Shown piece by piece: positions 3,553-48,583 of a DNA stretch of 48,744 bases. Under the pieces are notes generated by a model. It was not told where the DNA came from, did no database searches, and was given only the letters and a program-made list of their open reading frames with translations. The stretch is from IMG/VR virus record IMGVR_UViG_3300045988_145890, one strand, 5' to 3'. Made by a program: the position numbers and the translations under genes. Source of the stretch: a virus. Position 1 is the first letter of the stretch; each line of letters starts with the position of its first letter.

Positions 3553-4155
3553 ATGGCAACAAATTGGACATTATCACAGGCATTAGCAAAGATCACAGAA
3601 GGAACAGATAAGGCAGCAATCCAGGATATTGGAAGAAGATTCCCACTTACAGCAGTAGCATTAGCTGAAATCGGTCAGAATGCAGGCGCAGTTAAGATCA
3701 TTGGTGCAGTACCATCACATATCACGGCAAGAAAGATTGAATCTGTGTTAAAAGATGGTGTAGAGCAGGATCCAGATGTGGATACTGAAGATACTGAAGA
3801 TGAAGAGGAAACATCAAAGAAGGAAAATAAGAAACCTGCTAAGAAAGCTGCTAAAGCAAATGCAGAAGAAGATGCGGATGATGAGGAAGATGATCCTGTA
3901 GCACTTTACAAGAAATGTAAGAAAGCAGGTATTAAGGTTGCACCAAAGAAATCAGCAAAATATTACAAAGATCAGTTAGCAAAGGCAGCAGCTGCAGAGG
4001 AAGATGCAGATGATGAGGACTGGGATGATGAGGAAGAGGATGAGAAGCCTGCTTCAAAGAAGAAACCTGTCAAGAAGGCACCTGCAAAAAAGACTGCAAA
4101 GAAAGCTGAGCCGGAAGATGATGAAGATGAGGATGAAGATGAGTGGGACATTTAA
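3553..4155 (+). CDS. highly charged K/D/E-rich protein with HeH (Rho_N/SAP-like) motif
   Basis: 200 aa. Motif DPVALYKKCKKAGIKVAPKKSAKYYKDQLAKA flanked by acidic and lysine-rich tracts. AAGGAG RBS. Confidence 0.6.
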   Translation: MATNWTLSQALAKITEGTDKAAIQDIGRRFPLTAVALAEIGQNAGAVKIIGAVPSHITARKIESVLKDGVEQDPDVDTEDTEDEEETSKKENKKPAKKAAKANAEEDADDEEDDPVALYKKCKKAGIKVAPKKSAKYYKDQLAKAAAAEEDADDEDWDDEEEDEKPASKKKPVKKAPAKKTAKKAEPEDDEDEDEDEWDI

Positions 4156-4194
4156 TATTCCCAATGAATCCTCCGATCATAGATAGGTAAGGAA

Positions 4195-4232
4195 AACCAC
4201 CAACTGTAGAAAGAAAGCTATGGTTGGTGGTT
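4195..4232 (+). terminator. terminator-like hairpin
   Basis: Perfect 10-bp stem AACCACCAAC / GTTGGTGGTT with an 18-nt loop, followed by ATTTGAATAT. Confidence 0.45.
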
Positions 4233-4253
4233 ATTTGAATATATGGAGGAAAT

Positions 4254-4712
4254 ATGAGATATAGGATCTATACAGATGGTTCTTGGAATAAAGAAAAAGA
4301 CATCGGTGGTTGGGCAATAGTAATTGCAGATCATCAAGGAATAAAGTTAAAATCAGGGTCAAAAAAAGGCACGACAAATAATCAAATGGAGTTAATGGCG
4401 GTCTTGAATGCATTAGAATATGCAGTAAGAAAGCATTTAAAAGACATAGAAATAATCACAGATTCTATGTATGTTTTAAATGGAGTAAAAAAATATGTAG
4501 ATACATGGAAAGCAAATAATTGGGTAGGACTTTCAGGTGATGAGATTAAATATAAATCACAATGGGAAGGAATACTTATTATGCTGGAAAGTTTAAAGGA
4601 AAATAATTTTTCTGTTAAGTTTTCTAAGGTAAAAGGACATGACGGAAATTCATTAAATGAGCTTGCAGACCTTAAAGCAAGGGAAGCAATTAAAGCATAT
4701 AAGGAGAAGTAA
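4254..4712 (+). CDS. rnhA: ribonuclease HI
   Basis: YTDGS...GGWA, NNQMELMA, IITDS and KGHDGNSLNELADLKA match the RNase H1 DEDD layout. Confidence 0.85.
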   Translation: MRYRIYTDGSWNKEKDIGGWAIVIADHQGIKLKSGSKKGTTNNQMELMAVLNALEYAVRKHLKDIEIITDSMYVLNGVKKYVDTWKANNWVGLSGDEIKYKSQWEGILIMLESLKENNFSVKFSKVKGHDGNSLNELADLKAREAIKAYKEK

Positions 4713-8652: not shown

Positions 8653-10020
8653 TTGAATATAGAGCAAGAAATAAAGTTAACAGTAAATGAGCACTTTATG
8701 GATTATGTAACAGATTGGGATCATCAAGAGTATTTGTTGGTAGGATCTTATGGTAGTAGTAAATCTTATGAAACAGCAACAAAGCTAATTCTTAAGTTAT
8801 TAAGTGAGAAGAGAAAAGCATTGGTTGTAAGAGATACATATGAGCAGATCAAAGAATCCTGCTATGATTTAATATATGAGATCTTAGATGGAATGGGCTT
8901 GGTTACAGAAGACAAAAGTAAGTCAAGCAGGGAAAAGTATGTGATTGCTTCTAAGTCACCATTACAGTTCATGTTTCCTAATGGTTCAAGGATCGTATTT
9001 AAAGGCATGGATAAACCAACAAAGGTAAAGTCAATCAATAATGTATCTATTGTATGGATGGAGGAAGCGTCTGAGGTTAAGTACAGTGCTTATAAGGAAT
9101 TGAAGTTAAGACTTAGAAATCCATTCTTGAAGATCTATTATTTATTGACAACTAATCCGGTTGATAAACAAAATTGGATATATACACATTTCTTTGAACG
9201 TAAGGAAGTAGATGCCAATGGCGAAGAAAAGTTGGTAGTGATTCAGAATGAGGAAGAGTTCTACAAACGGAGGATAATTAGGGACAATCCAAATGGTGTA
9301 TATTATCACCACAGTGTTCCGGAAGATAACTCATTCTTAACATTGGATTATATAGCTAAGTTGGAAGAACTTAAGACATACGATCCTGACTTATATAGAG
9401 TAGCAAGGGAAGGTAAGTTCGGTATCAATGGCCGGCGAGTCCTTCCTCAGTTTGTTATTGCAGATAATCCGAAAGAGTTTAAGAGGGCAGTTCTTGCTGC
9501 ACCAATTAAAAGGAATGGCTTTGACTTTGGCTTTGAGACATCATATAATGCTTTGGTAAGAATTGCAGTAGATACTAAGAATAGTATATTATATATATAT
9601 GATGAGTGGTATAGGAATCACTTAACGGATAAGCAAACAGCAGAGAAACTTGAGGAGTGGAATCCTGATAGTAAGAATTGGAGAGTAAAAGCCGATTGTG
9701 CACAGCCGGGATCAATTAAATATTTCCATGATGAGGGATTCGGATTTACAAAGTGCCATAAGATAACAAGACTTGAGCAGGTAAAGAAAGTAAAACGATT
9801 TAAGAAAATTATATGTAGTCCAAAATGTAAGAATACAATAAGGGAGCTTAAAGATCTTGTATATGCTGAGGATAGCAACGGCAATATGATTTATGACGAG
9901 TTCAATATTGATCCTCATACTTTCTCAGCTATATGGTATGCATTAGATGATGTTACTGTTGCTGATGTTAAAGAAAGAAAGAATAATAGTAAGAATGGAA
10001 GTGGTGCAAATGGAATGTGA
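8653..10020 (+). CDS. terL: terminase large subunit (PBSX/Terminase_3-like)
   Basis: 455 aa. Walker A-like GSYGSSKS and Walker B-like VSIVWMEEASE. Nuclease half in the C-terminus. TTG start after GGAAGTGAG. Confidence 0.85.
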   Translation: MNIEQEIKLTVNEHFMDYVTDWDHQEYLLVGSYGSSKSYETATKLILKLLSEKRKALVVRDTYEQIKESCYDLIYEILDGMGLVTEDKSKSSREKYVIASKSPLQFMFPNGSRIVFKGMDKPTKVKSINNVSIVWMEEASEVKYSAYKELKLRLRNPFLKIYYLLTTNPVDKQNWIYTHFFERKEVDANGEEKLVVIQNEEEFYKRRIIRDNPNGVYYHHSVPEDNSFLTLDYIAKLEELKTYDPDLYRVAREGKFGINGRRVLPQFVIADNPKEFKRAVLAAPIKRNGFDFGFETSYNALVRIAVDTKNSILYIYDEWYRNHLTDKQTAEKLEEWNPDSKNWRVKADCAQPGSIKYFHDEGFGFTKCHKITRLEQVKKVKRFKKIICSPKCKNTIRELKDLVYAEDSNGNMIYDEFNIDPHTFSAIWYALDDVTVADVKERKNNSKNGSGANGM

Positions 10021-10133: not shown

Positions 10134-10361
10134 ATGAAGAATAATGTATTTAATCCAAATGTGAACACAACTAAATGGGTAAAAGCGGCAACAGTAAGAG
10201 CCATTAAGACAATGGCACAGACAGCTATTGGTATTATTGGAGCGGCTACAATGATTGAAAGTGTTGATTGGAGAGTAGTAGCAAGTGGCGCTATTATCTC
10301 AGGTATTGTAAGTATCTTAACAAGTGTAGCAGGTATTCCGGAGGTAGAAGAAAATGCGTAA
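10134..10361 (+). CDS. holin, r1t-type
   Basis: 75 aa. VRAIKTMAQTAIGIIGAA...VDW...IVSILTSVAG matches the r1t holin pattern, with two hydrophobic helices. Confidence 0.8.
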   Translation: MKNNVFNPNVNTTKWVKAATVRAIKTMAQTAIGIIGAATMIESVDWRVVASGAIISGIVSILTSVAGIPEVEENA

Positions 10362-11112
10362 TATATCACAGTTACATCCTGAGTTGAAGAAGAAAGTAGT
10401 AAAGCTTCAGAAAGAATGTTTGAAAGCAGGAATCAAGATAAAGATTGGTGAGTGTGTAAGAACAGTAGCGGAACAGAATGCTTTGTATGCAAAGGGTAGA
10501 AATGGTGTTCCTGGTCCAATTGTTACAAAAGCAAAAGGTACAGATTACAGATCAATGCATCAATGGGGAGTTGCTTTTGACTTTTTCTTGGATATGGATG
10601 TTGATAAAGATGGAAAGAAATCAGATGATGTTTTCAACAATGCAACGAAATTATTCAATAAGGTTGGAGCAATTGGCAAGAAGCTTGGTCTTGAATGGGG
10701 AGGAGATTGGAAGTCGATTAAAGATCTTCCGCATTTCCAGTTACCAGATTGGGGTAGTACAGCTACACAATTGAAGAAGAAGTATGGTACACCAGAAAAG
10801 TTCAAGGAAACATGGGATAATAAGAAAGAAGTAAAGCATGTCAAATCAAAACCAAACAATACTGTAACAGCTTCTAAGAATCCAACGGAGCCGGCTAGAC
10901 ATAGGGATTCCAAGTACAATGGTTTATATACAACAACAAGTAATTTGAATCTTAGAACAGGAGCTGGTACGAGTAAGCCAATTGTTACTGTTATTCCAAA
11001 AGGAACACGTGTTGCATGTCACGGCTACTATACAAATGTTGGCTCGGATGTTTGGTTATTCGTTCAGTATGGTAAGTACACTGGATTCGTAAGTAAGAAG
11101 CATTTAAAGTAA
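10354..11112 (+). CDS. endolysin: M15 (VanY/L-Ala-D-Glu peptidase-like) domain plus C-terminal SH3b
   Basis: RTVAEQNALYAKGR, SMHQWGVAFDF and GGDW...LPHFQ zinc-peptidase motifs. SH3b-like NLNLRTGAGTSKPIVTVIPKGTRV at the C-terminus. Confidence 0.8.
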   Translation: MRNISQLHPELKKKVVKLQKECLKAGIKIKIGECVRTVAEQNALYAKGRNGVPGPIVTKAKGTDYRSMHQWGVAFDFFLDMDVDKDGKKSDDVFNNATKLFNKVGAIGKKLGLEWGGDWKSIKDLPHFQLPDWGSTATQLKKKYGTPEKFKETWDNKKEVKHVKSKPNNTVTASKNPTEPARHRDSKYNGLYTTTSNLNLRTGAGTSKPIVTVIPKGTRVACHGYYTNVGSDVWLFVQYGKYTGFVSKKHLK

Positions 11113-11126
11113 GGAGGAATTAAACG

Positions 11127-12707
11127 ATGAGTGATGCTAATGTAAACATTACAACATCAATAGAAGATGGAGACATCGTATCGTATAGAGATATTCCTTA
11201 TGCAGTGTTGGATGATGATATTAGTGGCACTCTGAGGGAAGATTTTTTCCATGAACTTGGAAAGATAAAGAAGTTCTATCAAATTTACAAACAAGGTATG
11301 GACTTTACAACTGACGGAACAAATGGCGATTATATTCCAAGCCAACTGAGATTCAAAAAGGCAGCAGGATTGATCAATAAAGAAGCAAGGTTCATGTTTA
11401 GTACTCCAATGGATTTCTACGTTAATAAGGATCAGAATGAGACAGAAGAGCAGAAGGCAAACAATACAATACTGAATAACTTCTTGCAGAAAGTATTGAA
11501 GAAAAACTTCTTTGATAAGAATGTATTGAAAGCGGCAAAGGATTGCTTCATTGGTAAAAGAGTTGCTTGTATTCTTAATTTCAATGAGGACTCAGGTATT
11601 GCAGTTGATTTCCTTAATCCGTTAGAGTTCTACTATGAAATGGCCGGAGCTGATATGCTTACTAAGATTGTTGCTTTCTTTGTTGAAGTTGAGGCATCCA
11701 ATAATGTAGAGAAGAAGATACGTAAGAAAACATATTGGATGGCAGATGATGGTTATTGTTGGGTACATGAGGTTATGTATAATGGCTTAGGTGTACAGCT
11801 TGAAGAATTAGTTCCTGCAAGGTCTACGTTGTTTGAATATATTCCAGCGGTAGTGATCCTTAATGATGGTCTTACAAATGATATTAGAGGGGAATCGGAG
11901 ATAGAGGATTATGCCAAGTACGAAAAGTATTACAGTAAATTAGTAAATAGTGATTTTGATGCAGAAAGAAAGAGTATGAATCCTGTTCGCTATACTATTG
12001 ATGCTTCTTCGGGATCAACAAGCAACCTTTCAATTGGTCCTGGAGCATTTTGGGATATTCAATCAGATGATAATGGTGTTGAAGTGAAGAATGCTTCTGT
12101 TGGCCAATTGGAATCAAATATGAGTTACTCAGCAGCTTTGTCTGCTACATTGGATCGTGTAGATAATGAGATGCATAGCTTAGGATCAATTCCAAATATT
12201 GAGTCTGATAAGTTACAAGGAGTGATTACATCAGGTAAAACATTGAAAGCTCTTTACTGGCCATTGATCGTAAGATGCGACGAGAAGATGCAAACATGGG
12301 GAGCTGCGGCAGAGTTTATTGCTAAGTGTATCTTAGATGGTGCTTCATTATATCCAAAGGTTGTTCCATATTATACGAACGAAGAACTTCCTATTGTTGA
12401 GGCTGATATTCAGGTAATGAACAATTATGCTTTACCAGAGGATGAACAGGATGAAAAGAATATTGATCTTGCAGAGGTAACAGCACAAACAATGAGCCGA
12501 TCATCTTATATGAAGAAATGGAGAAAGCTTACAGACAAGGAAGTAATGTCTGAGCTTCAGCAGATTGCTTTGGAACAGGAAATGTTATCAGGTAACTCTT
12601 ACGGTAACATTCCTCCAATGGAAAGAGATGACCAGTCATTAGATGGAGATGATGATAGTAAATTAGATGAACCTGATGTTGTTGAGGGATCACAGGATGA
12701 CGAATAA
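11127..12707 (+). CDS. portal protein (SPP1 gp6-like)
   Basis: 526 aa. Lies upstream of the MuF-like gene. Acidic C-terminal tail. Confidence 0.65.
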   Translation: MSDANVNITTSIEDGDIVSYRDIPYAVLDDDISGTLREDFFHELGKIKKFYQIYKQGMDFTTDGTNGDYIPSQLRFKKAAGLINKEARFMFSTPMDFYVNKDQNETEEQKANNTILNNFLQKVLKKNFFDKNVLKAAKDCFIGKRVACILNFNEDSGIAVDFLNPLEFYYEMAGADMLTKIVAFFVEVEASNNVEKKIRKKTYWMADDGYCWVHEVMYNGLGVQLEELVPARSTLFEYIPAVVILNDGLTNDIRGESEIEDYAKYEKYYSKLVNSDFDAERKSMNPVRYTIDASSGSTSNLSIGPGAFWDIQSDDNGVEVKNASVGQLESNMSYSAALSATLDRVDNEMHSLGSIPNIESDKLQGVITSGKTLKALYWPLIVRCDEKMQTWGAAAEFIAKCILDGASLYPKVVPYYTNEELPIVEADIQVMNNYALPEDEQDEKNIDLAEVTAQTMSRSSYMKKWRKLTDKEVMSELQQIALEQEMLSGNSYGNIPPMERDDQSLDGDDDSKLDEPDVVEGSQDDE

Positions 12708-34210: not shown

Positions 34211-35020
34211 ATGGGATTATTAGATAGAATGAAGCATGAAGCAGCAAAGTCCGGAGCAAGTAAAGGAAAGTTTATGTACTTTAGACCTGACGACAAAAAG
34301 CGAATTAGATTCTTGCAGGAATTGGATGATGGTTTAGAAATTCCATTTCATGACAATTTTGAAAGAGGAATAAATGTTCCATGTCAGGAAGTGTTCGGTA
34401 AAGATTGTCCATATTGTGAAGATGAAGATCTTAGAACAAGAAGCCAGTTTGCATTTTCTGTTTACGATTATGATGCAAAGGAAGTCAAGATTCTTATGCA
34501 GGCAGTAAATCAGTGTTCAGCAATTCCTGCACTTGTAAATATGGCAGAAACATATGGGACAATTACAGATCGTGATTATGTATTGAAGAAGACAGGTAAA
34601 GGTTCGACTTCAAGCTTTACAATTATCCCGATGGATAAGAACAAATTTAGAAATGAAAAAGCAAAACCGCTTTCCAAGAAAGCTTTGTTAAAGTATTTGA
34701 ATCAGGCTTTTCCTTGTGATGATTCTGAGGATGATTTAGAGGACGATGAAGATGATTACGAAGACAGTCATAAGAAACCTAATACAAAAAAGAAAAAGGC
34801 TTCTGAGGATGACTGGGATGATGAGGACAGTAAATCTGATTATTCAGATATGTCAGCACGTGAGCTTTACGATCTTTGCTGTGATCGTGACATCGAGTGC
34901 CAGAAGAAACGCCCGGCAAAATATTATATCAATTTGTTAAAAGAGGATGATGCAGTCCATGATGATTGGGACGATGAGGAAGATTCTGATGAAGATGAAT
35001 GGGAGGATGACGATGAATAA
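34211..35020 (+). CDS. putative ssDNA-binding protein (gp32-like) with acidic tail and HeH motif
   Basis: 269 aa. Cys cluster PCQEVFGKDCPYC. HeH-like motif SARELYDLCCDRDIECQKKRPAKYYINLL. Ends in DE-rich tracts. Confidence 0.4.
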   Translation: MGLLDRMKHEAAKSGASKGKFMYFRPDDKKRIRFLQELDDGLEIPFHDNFERGINVPCQEVFGKDCPYCEDEDLRTRSQFAFSVYDYDAKEVKILMQAVNQCSAIPALVNMAETYGTITDRDYVLKKTGKGSTSSFTIIPMDKNKFRNEKAKPLSKKALLKYLNQAFPCDDSEDDLEDDEDDYEDSHKKPNTKKKKASEDDWDDEDSKSDYSDMSARELYDLCCDRDIECQKKRPAKYYINLLKEDDAVHDDWDDEEDSDEDEWEDDDE

Positions 35021-35366
35021 ATCATTTACAGATTTTTTTAATGATCAGGTCACTTTTCAAAAAGAAGTCAATGAAAGATTTGGATATGGTGTAAGTGTAG
35101 AAAACATTCCAGAGGATAATGTTGAGATTGCAAAATACCATATGCTTGCGTTGATGGAAGAGACGGGTGAATTGGTAAAATCTGATAAGCGTTGGAAGAA
35201 TTATCGTAATACTCATTTCGATAAAAATAACAAGTTGGAAGAGCTTTCTGATTGCTTCATTACATTATTTAACGTTGCAATGTACAGCGGTATCTCAGCC
35301 GAAGAGATTGAATTAGCATTAACTAAAAAAATGGATGAGAACATGAAACGAATAAGGGAGGCCTAG
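35013..35366 (+). CDS. MazG-like all-alpha NTP pyrophosphohydrolase
   Basis: ATG 35013 follows GGGAGGA. Motifs LMEETGELVKS (EExxE) and EELSDCFITLFNVA. Confidence 0.6.
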   Translation: MNKSFTDFFNDQVTFQKEVNERFGYGVSVENIPEDNVEIAKYHMLALMEETGELVKSDKRWKNYRNTHFDKNNKLEELSDCFITLFNVAMYSGISAEEIELALTKKMDENMKRIREA

Positions 35367-35402
35367 TGCTTCCCTTTGCTATTATAAGGAGAATAAAAAA
35401 AA

Positions 35403-36395
35403 ATGAATAAATTAAAGTATAAAGTCGATAAAATTCTCAAAAATCAGTTGATAAGTGTACAAATAAACTTATTAAATGAATGTACAAGCAGATGTAAGAG
35501 TTGTAGAAGATACACTTGGCCAAAAGATAAGCTTAATCTTGATGATGTAAAAAGAATTGTAAATTTTTTGTATAATAAGTATAGGATTGAGTCAATTCTT
35601 TTTTCAGGAGGAGATCCAGTTTGTTATGATGAATTGGATAAAGTTATTGAATATTGTAGTGACTTAGGAATACATACAGCGTGTATTACGACGCTCATTA
35701 CTGAAGATGAGCATATTAAAGATGCATTAACAAAGACGGATAGATTATTTGTTTCATTTGATGCATTTGACAGAGAAAAATATAAGATTGTAAGAGGAGT
35801 AGATGGTTCAGAAATTGTAAAAGAAAATTTAAGAAGTTTAAATGTTTTAAGAAAAAGAAATGGAAAAGAAAAGATAAGATTAAGTATGACGGTAGGAAAG
35901 TTAAATTTAGATCAGGTTGAAAAAGTGTATGCTTTTTGCAAAGAAAATGATTTAAGTCTAAATTTTTATTTATTGCATACTTGGGATGATTTGATGATGT
36001 CAAAGGATGATCTTAAGTTATTTTTTGATATGATGAAGAAAATTTCAGAAGAAAGCTATATTATGACAAATGCAGGAAGCTTTTTTGAAAAAGAGGATAA
36101 GTTAAAAGAAAGCTTTGATTGCTATATTCCAAGAATAACATGTGCAATAAATGCAGATGGAAATGTTTTTCCTTGTTGTAAGCTATTTGATGAGAATAAC
36201 TTTTACAAAGATCAGCTAAAGTATTCATACGGCAATGTGTTACATGAAGATATGAATGAAGTATTCAGTAGAAGGCTTGCTATCGGATATCCTTTAGAAT
36301 GTAGCAATTGTAAAAGTTGCTTACCGCAATACATAAGTCCAATTAACTTTATGGATGATTTGTATAAGCATAAAGATGATGCAATATTCATGTAA
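35403..36395 (+). CDS. radical SAM enzyme with SPASM/twitch-like C-terminal Cys cluster
   Basis: CTSRCKSC (CxxxCxxC, Cys codons at 35481, 35493 and 35502), FSGGDPV, and C-terminal CYIPRITCAINADGNVFPCC and CSNCKSC. Confidence 0.8.
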   Translation: MNKLKYKVDKILKNQLISVQINLLNECTSRCKSCRRYTWPKDKLNLDDVKRIVNFLYNKYRIESILFSGGDPVCYDELDKVIEYCSDLGIHTACITTLITEDEHIKDALTKTDRLFVSFDAFDREKYKIVRGVDGSEIVKENLRSLNVLRKRNGKEKIRLSMTVGKLNLDQVEKVYAFCKENDLSLNFYLLHTWDDLMMSKDDLKLFFDMMKKISEESYIMTNAGSFFEKEDKLKESFDCYIPRITCAINADGNVFPCCKLFDENNFYKDQLKYSYGNVLHEDMNEVFSRRLAIGYPLECSNCKSCLPQYISPINFMDDLYKHKDDAIFM

Positions 36396-36407
36396 GAGGT
36401 GATTAGC

Positions 36408-36908
36408 ATGTTAATAATTGTAGAAGGAATTGACAGAGTCGGAAAAACAACATTATGTGAAATGTTGTCAAAGTCATTTGGTATTAAGATATTTAAGCAT
36501 GATTCTAAGTTGTTTAACCTAGACAAAATGGATAATGATAACGAGACCGATAAAGCAATTAAGATTTGTGAGATTTGCAAATTGCTAAATGGGACTTTAT
36601 TGTTGGATAGATCTTATTGGTCTGATTTTGTATATGGAGTTCTTGAAAGAAATTATTGCATATCAGATGCTTTGGATAATTTAAAAAAAATTGAAAGCAT
36701 ATATAAAGATGAAGCAGTAATAATATATGTTAGGCCTGTTGATTTAAAATTATCATCAAAGCTTCATGGTGCAGATTTGACAAAGTATAATGATTTATTT
36801 GAATCAGTAAGAAAAGGAACGAAATGTAAAGTTATAGATTGTACATATGAAAGTCTTGAAAAAGTCATAGTAGAATTAGAAAGTATTTTGGGTGATAAAA
36901 ATGAATGA
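36408..36908 (+). CDS. thymidylate-kinase-like dNMP kinase
   Basis: MLIIVEGIDRVGKTT P-loop typical of Tmk, plus DRSYWSDFVYG. ATG 36408 follows AAGAGGTGA. Confidence 0.65.
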   Translation: MLIIVEGIDRVGKTTLCEMLSKSFGIKIFKHDSKLFNLDKMDNDNETDKAIKICEICKLLNGTLLLDRSYWSDFVYGVLERNYCISDALDNLKKIESIYKDEAVIIYVRPVDLKLSSKLHGADLTKYNDLFESVRKGTKCKVIDCTYESLEKVIVELESILGDKNE

Positions 36909-37752
36909 CTTAATATATAAAGTTGGAGAAGCCAATTGCAATAAAGTATTTGATAAGAATGGCGGCTTTTATGAGTATAACTTGATAAAAAGTGAAATTA
37001 CAAAATTGTTGGATAATGGTTTGGAAAAATGCTTTGTTTTGGTAGGAGGAAATCTTTCGGATGAAAGTGAATATGAGAAGATTATAAGCCTCATAAAGAG
37101 AAAAAAAGATAAAGGATATAAAATAATATTTATTGTTACTGACTCTATATCATTAAAAGAAATGTCAATTGATGTAATAAAGAGATGCGATTTATTATTG
37201 CACCAAGCAGTCGGCTTTGTATTTGATAATATAGATATAGAGCAAAAGTATTCATATGTGCCGGAATTATTTTATGTAGATAATGAAAAGCCAAAAGTTC
37301 AAAATGATATGATTTTTTTTGGAGGAGGAAGCTATAATAGAGAGGATAAGATAAAAGAGTATCTTAGAAAAGACAATGAAATGAAAAAAGGAACATTTTC
37401 TATTATAAAGGATAGCTTAAATGATGAAAGAATAGACTATAGTTCATTGCAATTACTAATGAAAATGTTTAAATTTAGTTTAATTATTTGTAGAAAGGAA
37501 TACAGAGAGAATTATTGGTTTACTCCAAGATTTATTGAAGCTGTTAATAATTGGAGTTTACCAGTTTTAGATTTTGAATATAACAAAAATAGATTATATG
37601 AATCAATTGAAGTAAGTTCATACGATGAAATGATTTATATGATAAATTGTTGCGGTGAGGAAAGCAGAATAAATAGGATATTGGATTTAAGAAAAGAGAT
37701 TAAAAGTAACAAAGACAAATTTGCTAAAAATATAATTGATTTTTGTAAATAA
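36901..37752 (+). CDS. hypothetical 283-aa protein (weak glycosyltransferase-like resemblance)
   Basis: Overlaps the kinase gene by 8 nt. MIFFGGGSYNRE and WFTPRFIEAVNNWSLPVLD resemble exostosin/GT-B C-terminal motifs. By eye only. Confidence 0.5.
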   Translation: MNDLIYKVGEANCNKVFDKNGGFYEYNLIKSEITKLLDNGLEKCFVLVGGNLSDESEYEKIISLIKRKKDKGYKIIFIVTDSISLKEMSIDVIKRCDLLLHQAVGFVFDNIDIEQKYSYVPELFYVDNEKPKVQNDMIFFGGGSYNREDKIKEYLRKDNEMKKGTFSIIKDSLNDERIDYSSLQLLMKMFKFSLIICRKEYRENYWFTPRFIEAVNNWSLPVLDFEYNKNRLYESIEVSSYDEMIYMINCCGEESRINRILDLRKEIKSNKDKFAKNIIDFCK

Positions 37753-37767
37753 TGAAAGGAATTGCAA

Positions 37768-38475
37768 ATGTTAAGTAATGTAATTGTAAAAGGAGAATCT
37801 TTAGATGAAGTATGGCTTACTTGGTTTAAGCAAATGATAGATAATAAAATCTCAGAAGAAAGTAGAGATGGAGAAGTTGCATCAGAAATAATAAATGCAA
37901 TAACTGTTTTGGAAAATCCAACAAAGAACATAATGACTAATCAAGTAAGAAAGCTATCAATGAGATATGCTATCGGTGAAATGCTTTGGTATATGTCAGC
38001 TAATCCAAATTTGAGTGCAATCCAGCATTATACAAAAGCTTGGGATAGAATGTCAGATGATGGAGAAACAGTAAATAGTAATTATGGTTATATTATTAAA
38101 GAGGCATATAACTTTAATCAGTATGAGTATTGCAAACGGTTACTTATTAAAGACAAAAATAGTAGGCAGGCAATTATTCACATTAAGGTACCAAAAAATA
38201 CTTTGGAACAGCCTACAAAAGATTTAAACTGTACAGTTTGCTTACAATTTTTAATTAGAGAAAATAAACTATACTGTACAACATATATGAGAAGTAATGA
38301 CTTATGGTTAGGATTTCCGTATGATATTTTTCAGTTTACTTGTATTCAAGTAAGAATGGCAATGGAATTGGGATTGGAAATTGGAAGTTATACGCATATA
38401 GCTGGATCATTGCATATGTATAAAAGAGATTTCGATAAAGCAATTGAAAGATATAAGGAGGAAAATAATGTTTGA
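37768..38475 (+). CDS. thymidylate-synthase-family enzyme with Asp at the Asn177-equivalent position (predicted dCMP hydroxymethylase or methylase)
   Basis: Catalytic Cys in DLNCTVCLQF (38230), YMRSNDLWLGFPYDIFQF (Asp codon 38323-38325) and GSLHMY. 235 aa. Confidence 0.7.
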   Translation: MLSNVIVKGESLDEVWLTWFKQMIDNKISEESRDGEVASEIINAITVLENPTKNIMTNQVRKLSMRYAIGEMLWYMSANPNLSAIQHYTKAWDRMSDDGETVNSNYGYIIKEAYNFNQYEYCKRLLIKDKNSRQAIIHIKVPKNTLEQPTKDLNCTVCLQFLIRENKLYCTTYMRSNDLWLGFPYDIFQFTCIQVRMAMELGLEIGSYTHIAGSLHMYKRDFDKAIERYKEENNV

Positions 38476-41194
38476 TTTACATAGGCATGATGAATATTCA
38501 ACATTTGACGGGTATGGTAAAGCTACAGAGTTAGCTGCTTTAGCAAAAGAATATGGATATAATGCTTTATGTACGACAAATCACGGAAATACAAATGGAT
38601 TGATTCAAACGTATATGGCTTGTAAAGATTTAGGCATTAAATCTATATTAGGAGTCGAAGGTTATTTTTTGCCAAAATGGAAGCAGCAAACTAGGGGATT
38701 TCATCTGATTGTCATTGCTAAGAACTTAAAAGGATATGGCAATATGAACAGATTGCAATTTGAAGGTGAAAAACAGAAATACTATAATCCAATATGGGAC
38801 TTTGATTTACTGGAAAAATATCATGAAGGGCTAATTTGTACAACGGCTTGTGTAGCAAGTTATTCATCGCAATGTATAATTGCAGGCAAGAATGATTTAG
38901 CAGAAAAATACTTAAGAAAGTTAAAAAGCATTTTTAAAGATGATCTTTACGTTGAGATTCAGCCATATAAAGTGTCAGAAGAAGGATTGCAAGAATATGT
39001 GAATGTTCAGTTAATTAAATTGGCAAAGAAGTTAAAGATTAAATGTATTTTAACTTCAGATTCTCATAGAGGAAGAAAAGAGGACTTTGGCACATATATG
39101 AAGATGCATGAAGTTGCGAATCATAATTTCGCAGATATTGAAGCAACATATGCTGAACGATATATGCCAAAGCCTTTTGAAATGCAAAAGAGATTTTATA
39201 AGATGCATAAAGATGATTTTGGTGATGATCTCGCCAAAAAGCTTGCAAATAAAATGGCAAAGAATCTTGATGAGATTGAAGACAAATGTGAAGAGAATTA
39301 TCTTGAGCAATTGCCATTAAAGTTGCCAAAGTTGGGTGATGATTCTACAAAAGTTTTGAAAAACAAAATTATTGAAGGTCTTAAAAGAAGAGGAAAATAT
39401 AAGAAGGAATACATTAAGCGAGTAAAGGAAGAATTTGATATAATTCATTACCATGGATTTGAAGATTATTTTCTTATTGTTGCAGACTATGTTAACTGGG
39501 CAAAGAAAAGAGGAATTATTGTAGGTCCAGGCAGAGGATCTGTTTGTAACTGTTTAGTAGCATATGCAATAGGAATCACTGAAGTGGATAGTTTATTATT
39601 TAATCTTGATTTTAGAAGATTCTTAAGAAAAGATAAAAAGAAGTTTCCTGATATTGATTTGGATTTTGAAACATCAAGGCGACATGAAGTAATTGAATAC
39701 TTATGTAAGAAGTATGAAGGACATGCAGCAAGAATTTGTTCATATGGTCTTTATAAAGTTGACAATCTTTTAAATGATTTGTTCAAAGTATGTGGACTTC
39801 CAACAGATAAAACTTTAGATGAAGAGGAAGTGAAAAGAAATAAATCAGAAATTCAATACATCAAATCATTTGTTCAATCAAATGTCGATGAAAATCAAAA
39901 TCTGGATGTGAAGAATTTGACAGAATCTGCGGAAGCAAAAATGATAAATAAAAAGTATGATAATATTCTTATTCATTTTTGCAAGTTATACAAGAAAGTA
40001 AGATTCATCGGAACGCATGCAGCTGGTGTAGCAATAACAGGTGGAGAATTGCTTGATTATGTAGCTTTAAAAGTTGACAAGAATGGAGATGTATTTACAA
40101 ATTATGACTTGACTGATATTGAGACCGTTAACGTTATCAAATTTGACATTCTTGGGCTTAAGACTATGGAATCAATTGGTGATTTAAGAAAAAGCACAGG
40201 AGTGACAGTCGATTATGATGAAGCAGTAAAAGACAAAAAGATTCTTGAGAATTTTAGACTTGGCAATTGCGATGGCATATTTCAGTTTGAAAAGAAAACA
40301 GCTAGGGATATTCTTGAGAAGATTCATTGTGATTGTTTTGAAGATATTGTAGCTGCATCATCAATGAATAGGCCGGGACCATTAAGTTTGAAGCAGCCAG
40401 ATTTATATGCTGAAAATAAATACAACATTGAGGAAGCAAAATCTTCTGAGTATTGGGAGTATACAAAAGAATCTTATGGCACAATCATATATCAGGAGCA
40501 GGTTCAAAGAATATGCGTTAATATTGGAGGACTTGAATGGACAGATGCAGATAAGATCATGAAACTTATGAAAGGCGGACATATGACAGAATCCGCTCAA
40601 AAAGCTTATAATGAAAATAAGGAAAACTTAAAAAGAAAGTTTGTTGATGGAGCTGTAAGTAATGGATATGAAAGAAGCTTTGCAGAAGATCTGTTTGAAA
40701 AAATGATTTCATATACATTTAATGAAGGACATGGGGTTGGATATTCTTTGATAAGTGTTGAAGAAATGTTTTACAAAGTATATGAGCCGAGTGCTTATTG
40801 GTTTGCAAAACTAAAATATGCAAAGAATGATTCAGAATATGATAAGTTCTGTGCAAAAGCTGTAAATGATGGATCTGTTGTTTTTCTTCCTCATGTTAAT
40901 TATTCTTCAGAAAAAGCAAAGCTTAGAAAAGTAGAGGGAGAGGATTGTTTGCAACAAGGTCTTTCCGAGATCAAGGGAGTTGGTGAAAAAGCAGCTTCAT
41001 ATATTCTTGATGAAAGAAAGAAACATGGAATATTTACTTCATTCGATAACTTTTATGATCGTTGTAAGTCAAGGACTGTAACATCACGAGTTGTTGAACT
41101 ATTAAAAGAAGCAGGAGCTTTGGAATTTAATAAAAAGATTTATATTAAGAGAGTAACAAAGTACAATAGTGCTCTTTATTCAAGGGCCAATTAG
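38468..41194 (+). CDS. dnaE: DNA polymerase III alpha-type (DnaE family, PHP domain)
   Basis: FDLHRHDEYS PHP motif, GRGSVCNCLVAYAIGIT, FDILGLKT, MNRPGP and HhH GVGEKAA. 908 aa. ATG follows AGGAGG and overlaps the upstream gene by 8 nt. Confidence 0.9.
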   Translation: MFDLHRHDEYSTFDGYGKATELAALAKEYGYNALCTTNHGNTNGLIQTYMACKDLGIKSILGVEGYFLPKWKQQTRGFHLIVIAKNLKGYGNMNRLQFEGEKQKYYNPIWDFDLLEKYHEGLICTTACVASYSSQCIIAGKNDLAEKYLRKLKSIFKDDLYVEIQPYKVSEEGLQEYVNVQLIKLAKKLKIKCILTSDSHRGRKEDFGTYMKMHEVANHNFADIEATYAERYMPKPFEMQKRFYKMHKDDFGDDLAKKLANKMAKNLDEIEDKCEENYLEQLPLKLPKLGDDSTKVLKNKIIEGLKRRGKYKKEYIKRVKEEFDIIHYHGFEDYFLIVADYVNWAKKRGIIVGPGRGSVCNCLVAYAIGITEVDSLLFNLDFRRFLRKDKKKFPDIDLDFETSRRHEVIEYLCKKYEGHAARICSYGLYKVDNLLNDLFKVCGLPTDKTLDEEEVKRNKSEIQYIKSFVQSNVDENQNLDVKNLTESAEAKMINKKYDNILIHFCKLYKKVRFIGTHAAGVAITGGELLDYVALKVDKNGDVFTNYDLTDIETVNVIKFDILGLKTMESIGDLRKSTGVTVDYDEAVKDKKILENFRLGNCDGIFQFEKKTARDILEKIHCDCFEDIVAASSMNRPGPLSLKQPDLYAENKYNIEEAKSSEYWEYTKESYGTIIYQEQVQRICVNIGGLEWTDADKIMKLMKGGHMTESAQKAYNENKENLKRKFVDGAVSNGYERSFAEDLFEKMISYTFNEGHGVGYSLISVEEMFYKVYEPSAYWFAKLKYAKNDSEYDKFCAKAVNDGSVVFLPHVNYSSEKAKLRKVEGEDCLQQGLSEIKGVGEKAASYILDERKKHGIFTSFDNFYDRCKSRTVTSRVVELLKEAGALEFNKKIYIKRVTKYNSALYSRAN

Positions 41195-44639: not shown

Positions 44640-44771
44640 ATGGAATATAAATTATTGTGCTTTGGAAAACATGAAGATACAGTAAGATGCGGAATGTGCC
44701 CAGATGAAGGAACATGCGAATGCGAAACGAAATATCAGGGAGAAGAAAATGAAAAGAATAAGCAAAGATGA
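44640..44771 (+). CDS. hypothetical 43-aa Cys-rich protein
   Basis: TAATG-type overlap. MEYKLLCFGKHEDTVRCGMCPDEGTCECE... Confidence 0.35.
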   Translation: MEYKLLCFGKHEDTVRCGMCPDEGTCECETKYQGEENEKNKQR

Positions 44772-45198
44772 ATATTACTTAGGAATTGCATTAGCAGTAT
44801 CAAGAAGAAGTACGTGTTTAAAAAGACATTATGGTTGTGTTATTGTAAAGAATGATGAGATCATTGCTACAGGCTATAATGGATCACCAAGAGGAGAAGA
44901 AAACTGTTGCGATTTAGGTAAATGCAAAAGACTAAATGTTCCACATAATAGTGGTGATTATTCTGATTGTCATTCAGTTCATGCAGAACAAAATGCTATG
45001 TTGTCAACTAGTAGAAATGAAATGATTGGTGCAACAATGTATTTAGCTGGTGAAGAGAAGGCAGACTTTAGCCAAAGTTGTTGGTTCGATATAGAAGATG
45101 CTACTCCATGTCCTATCTGTGAAAGAATGATTAAGAATGCAGGAATTATTTCTGTAAAAAATGCAAAAAGTTGCAAAAACCTATTTACAAATGAGTAG
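44749..45198 (+). CDS. dCMP deaminase
   Basis: ATG 44749 follows GGGAGAAG. YYLGIALAVSRRSTC, zinc motifs HAEQNA and PCPICERMI. Confidence 0.85.
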   Translation: MKRISKDEYYLGIALAVSRRSTCLKRHYGCVIVKNDEIIATGYNGSPRGEENCCDLGKCKRLNVPHNSGDYSDCHSVHAEQNAMLSTSRNEMIGATMYLAGEEKADFSQSCWFDIEDATPCPICERMIKNAGIISVKNAKSCKNLFTNE

Positions 45199-47770: not shown

Positions 47771-48583
47771 ATGAAATTATCTAAAATCAATTCAAATGGT
47801 TATAAAGTCTATATGGAAGAATATAACTCTATTTCAGAGTTTGTTCAGACAATCAATTCAAGATCACAAAATCCAAATATGACATCAGTTCAGTCGGAAA
47901 ATGGAACTTATAAATTTACAGGTACAAACGATTATGATGAAGCAGAGAATTTATTATTACATGGCTGGACAGAGGAATCAGAAAAGCTTAATGAAATGTT
48001 AAAACTTAAAGCGTTAAAAGAAAGATCTGTTAAAAATACTTATGATGTAGCCGGCTTCCAATGTTCAGTTCCAAGATACTTACAAGGTATTCCAACAAAT
48101 ATGATAAATCAAAAAGTAGTCACAAAGAAACAAAAGGCAGTTACAATCACAAAGAATATATCATATTCATGTAAAGTACCAAAACAAAAAATAGAAGAAG
48201 AATCTATAAAAGTACTTCAACTTGTTAATAACTTAGAGAAACAAGGATATAGGGTTATTCTTAATGTTACGCTTATTACAAAGTCAAAAAATGAAAACAT
48301 AATTCTTTGTAATAAAGTAAGAATTAAAAATGCAAGTGAACGTCTCAATCTTTCAAAAATAAGTTTTCCAATGGTTCATCCTAGTTATTTAAGACGTATT
48401 CTTTTTAAATGGATGGAAACATTTGAATGCACAACAAAACAATTTAATGAATCTTATGGATTTCCTGTAAAATGCATAACATTTAATGATATTATTAAAA
48501 ACAATAAAAATGACAATGAATATTTTGCAGAAGCATTATACTTAGGCAAAGATACGTTAACATTGGATGATTTAATCAAATAA
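47771..48583 (+). CDS. hypothetical 270-aa protein (possible vWA-like fold)
   Basis: AAGGAG RBS. AVTITKNISYS followed by helix and strand segments loosely resembles a degenerate MIDAS/vWA layout. Confidence 0.5.
   Translation: MKLSKINSNGYKVYMEEYNSISEFVQTINSRSQNPNMTSVQSENGTYKFTGTNDYDEAENLLLHGWTEESEKLNEMLKLKALKERSVKNTYDVAGFQCSVPRYLQGIPTNMINQKVVTKKQKAVTITKNISYSCKVPKQKIEEESIKVLQLVNNLEKQGYRVILNVTLITKSKNENIILCNKVRIKNASERLNLSKISFPMVHPSYLRRILFKWMETFECTTKQFNESYGFPVKCITFNDIIKNNKNDNEYFAEALYLGKDTLTLDDLIK

Follow-up and report, generated by a model that had tools for sequence, protein, structure and literature searches.

A putative T4-like glycosyl-hydroxymethylcytosine operon carrying a radical SAM enzyme in an AT-rich siphovirus

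Results

A tightly packed gene block next to the phage DnaE polymerase

The IMG/VR record IMGVR_UViG_3300045988_145890, a stretch of 48,744 nucleotides (nt) that was analysed at its full length and is called the window below (positions refer to the whole stretch), is essentially an entire siphovirus genome (~48.7 kb). It encodes terminase, portal, major head protein, tape measure, Dit and endolysin, its GC content is 28-39%, and related IMG/VR contigs span 48.5-52 kb. Five open reading frames (ORFs) located between the primase and single-stranded DNA-binding protein (SSB)-like genes and the DnaE polymerase gene had been proposed, in a preliminary description made from the sequence alone, to form a nucleotide-modification module. 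The analysis presented here suggests that these genes encode a T4-style pathway to glycosylated 5-hydroxymethylcytosine (hmC), accompanied by a radical S-adenosylmethionine (SAM) enzyme that appears to be specific to phages. The genes concerned, with the evidence for each assignment, are as follows.

35013 to 35366, + strand: predicted all-alpha nucleoside triphosphate (NTP) pyrophosphohydrolase, dimeric-dUTPase/MazG-like (Pfam, PHROG)
35403 to 36395, + strand: predicted radical SAM enzyme with a SPASM/Twitch-type C-terminal Fe-S domain (Pfam, cysteine motifs, AlphaFold2 (AF2) model)
36408 to 36908, + strand: predicted Tmk/YorR-like P-loop nucleotide kinase (PHROG 761 "thymidylate kinase", 5.8e-13)
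36901 to 37752, + strand: predicted GT-B DNA glycosyltransferase of 283 amino acids (aa), remote homolog of T4 beta-glucosyltransferase (structure model, family profile)
37768 to 38475, + strand: predicted ThyA-superfamily deoxycytidine monophosphate (dCMP) 5-hydroxymethylase, 5hm-dCMP synthase type (Pfam, active-site residues)
38468 to 41194, + strand: predicted phage DnaE-type (Pol III alpha) replicative polymerase (domain searches)
44749 to 45198, + strand: predicted dCMP deaminase, analogue of T4 cd (Pfam dCMP_cyt_deam_1, 3.3e-17; PHROG 174, 3.4e-42)

All ORFs were present at the coordinates first given and as closely packed as had been claimed, and the family labels originally attached to them agreed with searches of Pfam, PHROGs and NCBIfam. 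Six genes at 35013-41194 lie on the same strand, and their junctions are either 8-nt overlaps or gaps of at most 36 nt. Overlaps of 8 nt join the SSB-like gene (ending at 35020) to the pyrophosphohydrolase (NTPase) gene (ATG at 35013), the kinase gene (ending at 36908) to the 283-aa ORF (ATG at 36901), and the ThyA-like gene (ending at 38475) to the DnaE gene (ATG at 38468). Gaps of 36, 12 and 15 nt, respectively, separate the NTPase gene (ending at 35366) from the radical SAM gene (35403), the radical SAM gene (ending at 36395) from the kinase gene (ATG at 36408), and the 283-aa ORF (ending at 37752) from the ThyA-like gene (ATG at 37768). A purine-rich, GGAGG-like Shine-Dalgarno sequence is found 6-10 nt 5' of each chosen ATG in the block. 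No convincing terminator was detected on the + strand inside the block, and a scan for promoters and terminators gave counts at the level of chance. To judge by gene content, the arrangement is not a chance one, because the gene set recurs in the equivalent slot across dozens of independent metagenomic phage contigs; this recurrence reaches down to 27% identity of the radical SAM enzyme. Apart from the ThyA gene, which is a 65% match to Agathobaculum phages AB434P2/P3 and the sole nucleotide match among cultured phages, no nucleotide similarity to cultured phages was found over 24 kb.

The ThyA homolog has the residue pattern of a dCMP hydroxymethylase

The ThyA homolog (37768-38475) matched Pfam Thymidylat_synt (PF00303) at 1.5e-27 over residues 17-230. 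Its top match in the Protein Data Bank (PDB) was MilA, a CMP 5-hydroxymethylase (1e-28), and its other PDB matches were ordinary thymidylate synthases (1e-17 and weaker) and T4 gp42, a dCMP hydroxymethylase (1e-14). The window protein was aligned with E. coli ThyA, T4 gp42, RB69 gp48 and eight cassette homologs. Numbering follows what we take to be the E. coli ThyA sequence and was validated by C146, R166, S167 and D169 falling at their expected positions. Residue diagnostics in E. coli ThyA numbering have been described for this superfamily: the exchange N177D makes dCMP the substrate, water gains access when the residue at L143 is acidic, so that a hydroxymethyl instead of a methyl group results, and the recently discovered flavin/O2-dependent enzymes by which RB69 and DLP3 synthesise 5-hydroxy-dCMP are marked by D169N (Lee et al., NAR 2026, PMC13326640).

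The catalytic Cys (C146), whose column is invariant in the alignment, is kept in the window protein (DLNC-TV). L143 is replaced by Asp, three residues before the catalytic Cys (KDLNC), at the position where T4 gp42 reads DFMC and MilA reads DVAC. N177 is likewise replaced by Asp (FPYDIF), which is also found in all cassette homologs, T4 gp42 and RB69 gp48, whereas E. coli ThyA has Asn; this is the residue that had been noticed earlier as indicating cytosine-type specificity. D169 is retained (RSND), whereas RB69 gp48, aligned at the same position, reads RSQN (D169N). Collectively, these residues form the T4 gp42/MilA pattern, and the protein is predicted to make 5-hydroxymethyl-dCMP; by the same pattern, it would not be a producer of dTMP, 5hm-dUMP or 5-hydroxy-dCMP. 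Assignment as a 5-hydroxy-dCMP synthase of the RB69 gp48/DLP3 gp80 type was rejected on the retained D169. Assignment as a thymidylate synthase was rejected as well, with all thymidylate synthase equivalog models far under their cut-offs (for example, 72.6 versus 327), and the ordinary dUMP-specific enzyme that the preliminary description had named as a competing identity is excluded by N177D and L143D. The Agathobaculum phage homolog, which is 58% identical, carries the GenBank label "deoxyuridylate hydroxymethyltransferase"; this label is probably a misannotation, because that protein, too, has Asp at the N177 position.

Profile and fold comparisons link the 283-residue protein to T4 beta-glucosyltransferase

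The 283-aa protein (36901-37752) had no match in Pfam, PHROGs or NCBIfam and none by tblastn against 50,697 phage records. A word-indexed protein search, as well as a locus search using a 10-sequence glycosyltransferase (GT) alignment, returned close relatives only, while an exhaustive hidden Markov model (HMM) profile search gave 187 cluster representatives at E <=1e-3. Its AF2 model (predicted local distance difference test score (pLDDT), 85.6; predicted template modelling score (pTM), 0.86) has a two-Rossmann GT-B fold. All top Foldseek matches of the model in the PDB were GT-B enzymes (probability, 1.00; template modelling (TM) score, 0.5-0.6), among them GtfC, trehalose-phosphate synthases, exostosin-like 3 and a fucosyltransferase, and its viral fold neighbours included proteins named DNA alpha- or beta-glucosyltransferase and the phage SP-15 glycosyltransferase.

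Comparisons of single sequences or of the 10-sequence alignment with T4 beta-glucosyltransferase (beta-GT) were suggestive only (79%). With a 61-sequence family profile, hmmsearch placed 1bgt, the T4 DNA beta-glucosyltransferase, as the top PDB match (E, 4.5e-14), and hhalign of the family against T4 beta-GT gave a probability of 97.9% over residues 42-265. The sole invariant column among the 61 sequences, D81, aligned with T4 Asp100 (FTD100), which we take to be the catalytic base; PDB 1nzd, a separate 351-residue entry in the profile search, is presumably the D100A mutant. Furthermore, R147, R210 and E213 aligned with T4 R195, R269 and E272, presumably the uridine diphosphate (UDP) ligands. 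On this evidence, the 283-aa protein is a compact, divergent and remote homolog of T4 DNA beta-glucosyltransferase. It had been described as having no T-even counterpart, a view that the 1bgt match, the hhalign result and the aligned Asp100 overturn; instead of two members of the module without such a counterpart, only the radical SAM enzyme remains.

The radical SAM enzyme is phage-specific and has a generic fold

The radical SAM protein (35403-36395) matched Pfam Radical_SAM (PF04055) at 2.9e-14 and SPASM at 3e-6 (27.9 bits; cut-off, 21.5). Its motif C27xxxC31xxC34 (CxxxCxxC) comprises three cysteines that are invariant in the family. In the C-terminal part, the conserved cysteines of the family are only C240, C258, C259, C303 and C306; because just these five are conserved, a single auxiliary cluster (Twitch-like) is likely to be present rather than a full two-cluster SPASM domain. 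The original label of a radical SAM/SPASM enzyme holds for the radical SAM core and the SPASM match, with a full two-cluster SPASM domain the less likely arrangement. The AF2 model had a pLDDT of 88.5, and its Foldseek neighbours were about equal (TM score, 0.54-0.68): SuiB, CteB, viperin, SkfB, BlsE, DesII and anSME. In profile comparisons with the PDB, viperins, SuiB and SkfB came first (~1e-10), followed by MoaA, TYW1 and BlsE, with BtrN weak; the similarity to viperin is restricted to the generic radical SAM core, residues 17-173. Since the neighbour list is flat and generic, the substrate cannot be read from the fold.

None of the curated NCBIfam families was matched at its cut-off (best, 64 bits versus 380), and the assignments to NrdG, MoaA, QueE-like enzymes, viperin or peptide maturases were rejected, all of these equivalogs being far under cut-off. 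For an NrdG-type activase, which had been mentioned earlier as an alternative identity, the NrdG2 model (TIGR02495) gave 35.4 bits where 131 are required, and no NrdD was detected among the window proteins scanned against Pfam and PHROGs, a scan that covered the larger ORFs; this alternative is excluded on both counts. By tblastn against the 50,697 phage records, two weak uncultured matches were found and none in cultured phages. In cellular genomes, no homolog above 31% identity was found, and the best cellular match sits on a contig labelled "Bacteroidetes MAG" that is itself phage-like. Homolog searches never returned the enzyme outside modification cassettes at >=35% identity. As far as these searches reach, the radical SAM enzyme is phage-specific.

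The NTPase, kinase, polymerase and deaminase

The NTPase matched Pfam dUTPase_2 at 1.3e-6 (29.3 bits; cut-off, 22.9) and PHROG 173 at 1.2e-10, and it is kept as the 5'-most gene of every related cassette. The all-alpha NTP pyrophosphohydrolase superfamily includes dCTPases. The kinase has the P-loop GIDRVGKTT and a DR motif, and its PDB matches, yeast Tmk and SPbeta YorR, were weak. It is of the same type as the kinases of the DLP3, RB69 and RL38J1 clusters (PMC13326640). The polymerase contains PHP, DNA_pol3_alpha (7e-63), finger and HHH_6 domains and matched PHROG 405 at 8e-216; its N-terminus, MFDLHRHDEY, agrees with the start of the Agathobaculum phage DnaE. The dCMP deaminase reported earlier at 44749 was confirmed: this ATG lies within ORF 44704-45198, the translation contains HAE and PCxxC zinc motifs, and the gene is retained downstream in relatives. 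Protein scans found no other nucleotide-metabolism genes in the window genome.

Related cassettes are hypervariable

Through the ThyA homolog, 80 loci were gathered, and clustering of their proteins gave 56 cassettes adjoining DnaE, of the following types.

11 of 56: long radical SAM enzyme and a transferase of the 283-aa protein family (GT283), the window type
3 of 56: long radical SAM enzyme, a GT like RB69 Aat1 and a U32 protein ("Form B")
2 of 56: long radical SAM enzyme and other GT-like proteins
18 of 56: shorter radical SAM paralog (281-312 aa), other GTs and sugar-activating enzymes
15 of 56: no radical SAM enzyme
7 of 56: HAD-kinase, cytidylyltransferase and GT, a type to which the cultured Agathobaculum phages belong

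A radical SAM enzyme is thus present in ~60% of the cassettes, and the pairing of radical SAM and ThyA-like genes, for which a search of other phages had been proposed, proved to be recurrent. Orthologs of 35-45% identity were always found in this kind of cassette. The most distant example, at 27% identity, was L029, a GC-richer 91-kb phage contig that encodes, in order, NTPase, UDG, radical SAM enzyme, kinase, GT, ThyA homolog (Asp) and DnaE; the UDG gene, of the uracil-DNA-glycosylase superfamily, is at L029:6233-6913. The radical SAM gene lies directly beside the kinase gene, in either order, in every examined cassette that has one, with the exception of L113, in which an 82-aa ORF lies between them. 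Cassettes with the short paralog also encode ~400-aa GTs, an exostosin-like GT, cytidylyltransferases and a PMI-cupin fusion. Cassettes with NTPase, kinase, GT and ThyA homolog and no radical SAM enzyme were found in L014/L015, L109, L119 and others.

In one close relative, L109 (IMGVR_UViG_3300045988_095505), the flanking proteins share 85-99% identity with those of the window (NTPase, 87%; ThyA, 88%; DnaE, 91%; RecA, 99%). When L109:3907-6708 is compared with window 34947-38475, however, a kinase of 43% identity and an unrelated GT of 377 aa take the place of the radical SAM, kinase and GT283 genes. In a DnaE tree, the window group is nested within a clade that otherwise lacks the radical SAM enzyme. 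This swap and the tree together indicate that the radical SAM, kinase and GT283 genes were imported as a single unit, and on these comparisons the slot beside DnaE is clearly a hypervariable, recombination-prone cassette. Most of the kinases associated with radical SAM enzymes form one clade in an unsupported neighbour-joining (NJ) tree, a pattern that largely mirrors the DnaE phylogeny; the tree, considered as a test of co-adaptation with the radical SAM enzyme, was set aside as suggestive, yet confounded by phage phylogeny. Both the DnaE and the PrimPol/D5 replication backbone, which are unrelated to each other, carry cassettes with a radical SAM enzyme.

Several further loci were inspected. 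On L017, which has a PrimPol/D5 and ligase backbone, S-adenosylmethionine synthetase and HD-domain genes (933-1955 and 3842-4453) lie a few kb 5' of an NTPase-GT-radical SAM-kinase-ThyA cassette. L026:7010-12473 (= L129) has two radical SAM genes, one of the long type (342 aa) and one of the short type (281 aa), both with SPASM matches, and two GT-like genes flank its ThyA homolog region. In L069:4332-6172, a uracil-DNA-glycosylase-superfamily gene is located 5' of the UDP-galactopyranose mutase, kinase and radical SAM genes; this contig was deposited as a Bacteroidetes metagenome-assembled genome (MAG) contig and has a phage-like appearance. The cultured relatives are Agathobaculum phage AB434P2 (OP172633; L016:401-5582) and AB434P3. 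Their cassette encodes NTPase, kinase, a HAD/choline-kinase-like protein, cytidylyltransferase, GT, a ThyA homolog (Asp177) and an exostosin-like GT; the first of these GTs is a distant homolog of the window 283-aa protein. From its gene content, the AB434P2/P3 cassette predicts an hmC adduct built from a cytidine diphosphate (CDP)-activated group. The 361-aa protein encoded after the Agathobaculum ThyA gene was considered as a U32 protein of the L018 type and proved not to be one; it is the exostosin-like GT candidate.

Form B cassettes combine the radical SAM enzyme with a U32 protein

The three Form B loci (L018:5481-9120, L019:5494-9094 and L094:4487-8128), which share the phage backbone of the other cassettes, have the order kinase, radical SAM enzyme, 322-336-aa GT, peptidase-U32-family protein and DnaE, with no ThyA homolog in the slot. 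The U32 protein (Pfam, 2e-8 to 5e-11) is 50% identical to RB69 gp50 (4e-132), and the 322-336-aa protein is homologous to RB69 gp46:47, arabinosyltransferase 1. U32 enzymes (RlhA, TrhP, UbiU/V) are O2-independent C5 and aromatic hydroxylases. By analogy, Form B cassettes may provide an anaerobic, O2-independent route to glycosylated 5-hydroxycytosine, which would also hint at a function for the unassigned RB69 gp50. In tRNA, pyrimidines are hydroxylated by two pathways, neither of which is related to the ThyA-type synthase (PMC13326640).

Other features of the window genome

An endolysin-like ORF (10354-11112; PHROG 2649, 1.6e-43) lies between the large terminase gene (8653-10020) and the portal gene (11127-12707), an unusual placement for a lysis gene. 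The first ORF of the window, at 79-963, matches PHROG 249, which is labelled "porphyrin biosynthesis"; we presume it to be CobT/vWA-like. The last ORF, at 47771-48583, matches PHROG 1909, whose function is not annotated. In the relative L092, a pair of neighbouring genes, one for a DUF7192 protein and one for an AAA_5 (MoxR-like) ATPase, is found 5' of the primase gene; if this pair is homologous to ORFs 79-963 and 47771-48583, the genome may be circularly permuted, with the two ends of the window joined.

Discussion

A predicted glycosyl-hmC pathway

The T-even logic first proposed for the NTPase, dCMP hydroxymethylase, dNMP kinase and dCMP deaminase fits the gene set, and with the beta-GT homolog added, we consider it quite probable that the core of the locus gives this AT-rich siphovirus a glycosyl-hmC pathway in the style of T4. 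In this pathway, the all-alpha NTPase would convert dCTP to dCMP, both removing dCTP and supplying dCMP, and the ThyA homolog, according to its active-site signature, would convert dCMP to 5-hydroxymethyl-dCMP with methylene-tetrahydrofolate and water. The Tmk-like kinase would then raise 5hm-dCMP to the diphosphate and the host NDP kinase to the triphosphate, which the phage DnaE would accept and incorporate. Once hmC is in the DNA, the 283-aa protein would flip it out and attach a sugar from a UDP-sugar, as its homology, catalytic Asp and UDP-binding Arg/Glu residues suggest. The dCMP deaminase would divert part of the dCMP to dUMP for thymidylate, as a side step. We infer the NTPase and kinase steps from gene context and not from specificity determinants.

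The role of the radical SAM enzyme

The radical SAM enzyme, an optional addition to this pathway that travels together with the kinase and the GT, would remodel the sugar, be it while still part of the nucleotide-sugar donor or once attached to the DNA. The chemistry could be a dehydrogenation, epimerisation, dehydration or decarboxylation, and the final adduct would differ from plain glucosyl-hmC. Taken as a whole, the best explanation of the locus is that glycosylated hmC replaces cytosine and that the radical SAM enzyme remodels the sugar, to which we give a probability of about 0.5. The assignment of the radical SAM enzyme itself to a sugar or nucleotide-sugar donor is our tentative preference, at odds noticeably worse than even. 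It is favoured because the enzyme is optional, independent of the C5 substituent, co-inherited with a GT and replaced elsewhere by enzymes that activate nucleotide-sugars or CDP-alcohols, and because its shorter paralog is embedded among sugar-activating enzymes. Its independence of C5 follows from its occurrence with either ThyA or U32 base-modifying enzymes and with different GT families; in Agathobaculum phages, its position is filled by donor-synthesis enzymes, a kinase and a cytidylyltransferase. Furthermore, BlsE, DesII and viperin, which are among its structural neighbours, act on nucleotides or sugars, and two distant cellular relatives adjoin genes for GT2 glycosyltransferases, an APH-type kinase and an aminotransferase. 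A precedent for such an arrangement is the glycosylation of phage 5hmC by pairs of a GT and an adjacent sugar epimerase, in which the GT depends on the epimerase for its donor (bioRxiv 10.1101/2023.12.21.572611).

Several observations weigh against this explanation. The peptide-modifying enzymes SuiB, CteB, SkfB and anSME are equally close to the radical SAM model (TM score, ~0.6), and the fact that its gene so strictly adjoins that of the nucleotide kinase may rather speak for a step at the nucleotide level. Its presence largely tracks phage phylogeny, so that its co-occurrence with the other genes is only weak statistical evidence, and L014/L015 have a GT283-family cassette without any radical SAM enzyme. 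All enzymatic steps are drawn from homology; the kinase scores below the cut-offs of Pfam (20.9 versus 27) and NCBIfam (TIGR00041, 25 versus 83), and the specificities of both the NTPase and the kinase are not fixed by sequence.

The adjacency to the kinase is the starting point for a different, and in our judgement unlikely, role, in which the radical SAM enzyme acts on the base or nucleotide, for example by oxidising the 5-hydroxymethyl group of hm-dCMP, or of hmC in DNA, to a formyl group in a reaction like the alcohol oxidations of anSME and BtrN. It could also make a second change to the nucleotide ahead of the kinase step. The outcome would be a new cytosine derivative that the GT decorates or leaves. 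The kinase was also swapped along with the radical SAM gene in L109, the CTP-acting viperins were among the best profile matches, and a Twitch-type auxiliary cluster is typical of radical SAM dehydrogenases. However, in Form B cassettes the enzyme occurs with a U32 protein in place of the ThyA homolog, where there would be no hydroxymethyl group to oxidise; the single clade formed by most of the kinases mostly mirrors the DnaE phylogeny, and the viperin likeness is limited to the generic core. We regard it as improbable to a similar degree that the DNA carries ordinary glucosyl-hmC and that the radical SAM enzyme, unrelated to DNA modification, serves counter-defence, metabolism or another Fe-S/SAM process from within a recombination-prone slot. 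The existence of otherwise complete cassettes without the enzyme, the recombination hot spot itself and the fact that neither a partner nor a substrate can be assigned to the enzyme are all compatible with this possibility. Its constant position between modification genes in an overlapping operon, down to 27% identity and on two backbones, argues against it, as do the lack of radical SAM homologs outside such cassettes at >=35% identity and the SAM synthetase encoded nearby in L017. The automatic labels of relatives ("thymidylate synthase" or "deoxyuridylate hydroxymethyltransferase", and "thymidylate kinase") would fit ordinary nucleotide housekeeping by a thymidylate synthase, thymidylate kinase, dUTPase and NrdG-type activase in a phage with unmodified DNA. 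This is very improbable given the Asp residues at positions 177 and 143 of the ThyA homolog, the scores of the thymidylate synthase and NrdG2 models, the lack of NrdD among the scanned window proteins and the DNA beta-glucosyltransferase homolog inside the operon.

If the radical SAM enzyme remodels the sugar as preferred here, candidate adducts would be keto-, deoxy-, epimerised or pentose-type sugars formed by O2-independent radical chemistry, and the slot would be a "glycan diversity cassette" swapped among phages. The chance that the enzyme is the first member of its superfamily in cytosine DNA hypermodification and acts with a compact beta-GT homolog to give this phage, along with many uncultured gut phages, a glycosyl-hmC adduct not yet described falls just short of even. 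A hypermodification not yet described, which had been proposed from the arrangement as a whole, may still be specified by the locus, and it is now the radical SAM enzyme by itself that points to it. Literature searches found no paper linking radical SAM enzymes to hmC or cytosine hypermodification.

DNA hypermodifications decide phage survival against restriction, CRISPR and type IV systems, and the enzymes that make them are a source of tools for epigenetic sequencing chemistry. To our knowledge, what is known of cytosine hypermodification comes almost entirely from phages of aerobically grown Proteobacteria. The window locus appears to hold a complete T4-like gene pathway in siphoviruses of Gram-positive gut anaerobes, a lineage in which over half of the cassette variants carry a radical SAM enzyme, an enzyme without a described role in cytosine modification. 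Its interest rests on the chemistry of this enzyme and on the combinatorial cassette, not on the presence of an hmC pathway, and the part still in need of an explanation is the phage-specific radical SAM enzyme that this mobile and hypervariable glycosylation cassette carries. If the enzyme tailors a sugar or a base, it would be a new enzyme class for DNA chemistry, probably with new adducts, and it would explain diversification of the DNA surface through swaps of three-gene units.

Comparison with known systems

The closest counterpart of the core is the T4 pathway, whose members (gp56 dCTPase, gp42, gp1 kinase, alpha- and beta-glucosyltransferases and cd) map one to one in role onto window genes. 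T4 gp42 and the window ThyA homolog have a common signature of C146, L143D/E, D169 and N177D, and T4 beta-GT and the 283-aa protein are true, if remote, homologs with the equivalent of the catalytic Asp100 kept. The window differs in virion and host type, being an AT-rich siphovirus related to phages of the anaerobe Agathobaculum, in having a DnaE-type polymerase where that of T4 is of family B, and in having a Tmk/YorR-like kinase where that of T4 is gp1-like. Unlike in T4, its genes lie within one overlapping operon, and that operon includes a radical SAM gene, of which T4 has none.

The arabinosyl- and hexosyl-5-hydroxycytosine clusters of RB69, Acinetobacter phage DLP3 and Rhizobium phage RL38J1 (Lee et al., NAR 2026, PMC13326640) share with the window an adjacent Tmk-like kinase, GT and ThyA homolog, as well as an all-alpha dCTPase. 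These clusters were studied experimentally and are a precedent for the trio. The sister cassettes L018, L019 and L094 are closer still to RB69 in their gp50-like U32 protein and arabinosyltransferase 1 homolog. The ThyA homologs of the three phages have the D169N exchange and depend on flavin and O2 to produce 5-hydroxy-dCMP, whereas the window enzyme retains D169, which suggests an hmC-type enzyme; their sugar donor comes from a multi-enzyme UDP-arabinose or UDP-Galf route without a radical SAM enzyme. The clusters described by Pyle et al. (bioRxiv 10.1101/2023.12.21.572611) would resemble the window in combining a DNA GT with one donor-tailoring partner, and GT-B enzymes were reported there to occur preferentially with thymidylate-synthase-type, pre-replicative pathways. 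In these clusters, however, 5hmC arises mostly post-replicatively, through a methyltransferase and a TET-like dioxygenase, and the partner is an NAD-type epimerase and not a radical SAM enzyme; the word "radical" is absent from that paper.

The only radical SAM enzyme described as installing a phage DNA hypermodification is gp53 of Pseudomonas phage M6, an isomerase in thymidine hypermodification (Lee et al., NAR 2021, PMC8989533). No match of the window enzyme to M6-type phages was found by tblastn. A thymidine pathway of the M6 type was rejected for the window, its ThyA homolog having Asp177 and not Asn177, and no genes for a 5-hydroxymethyldeoxyuridine (5-hmdU) DNA kinase or aGPT-Pplase were found among the window ORFs scanned. 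M6 gp53 is spore-photoproduct-lyase-like and acts on glycinyl-thymidine in DNA, after the 5-hmdU DNA kinase and aGPT-Pplase, whereas the window enzyme is of the SPASM/Twitch type and is located in a cytosine and glycosylation context.

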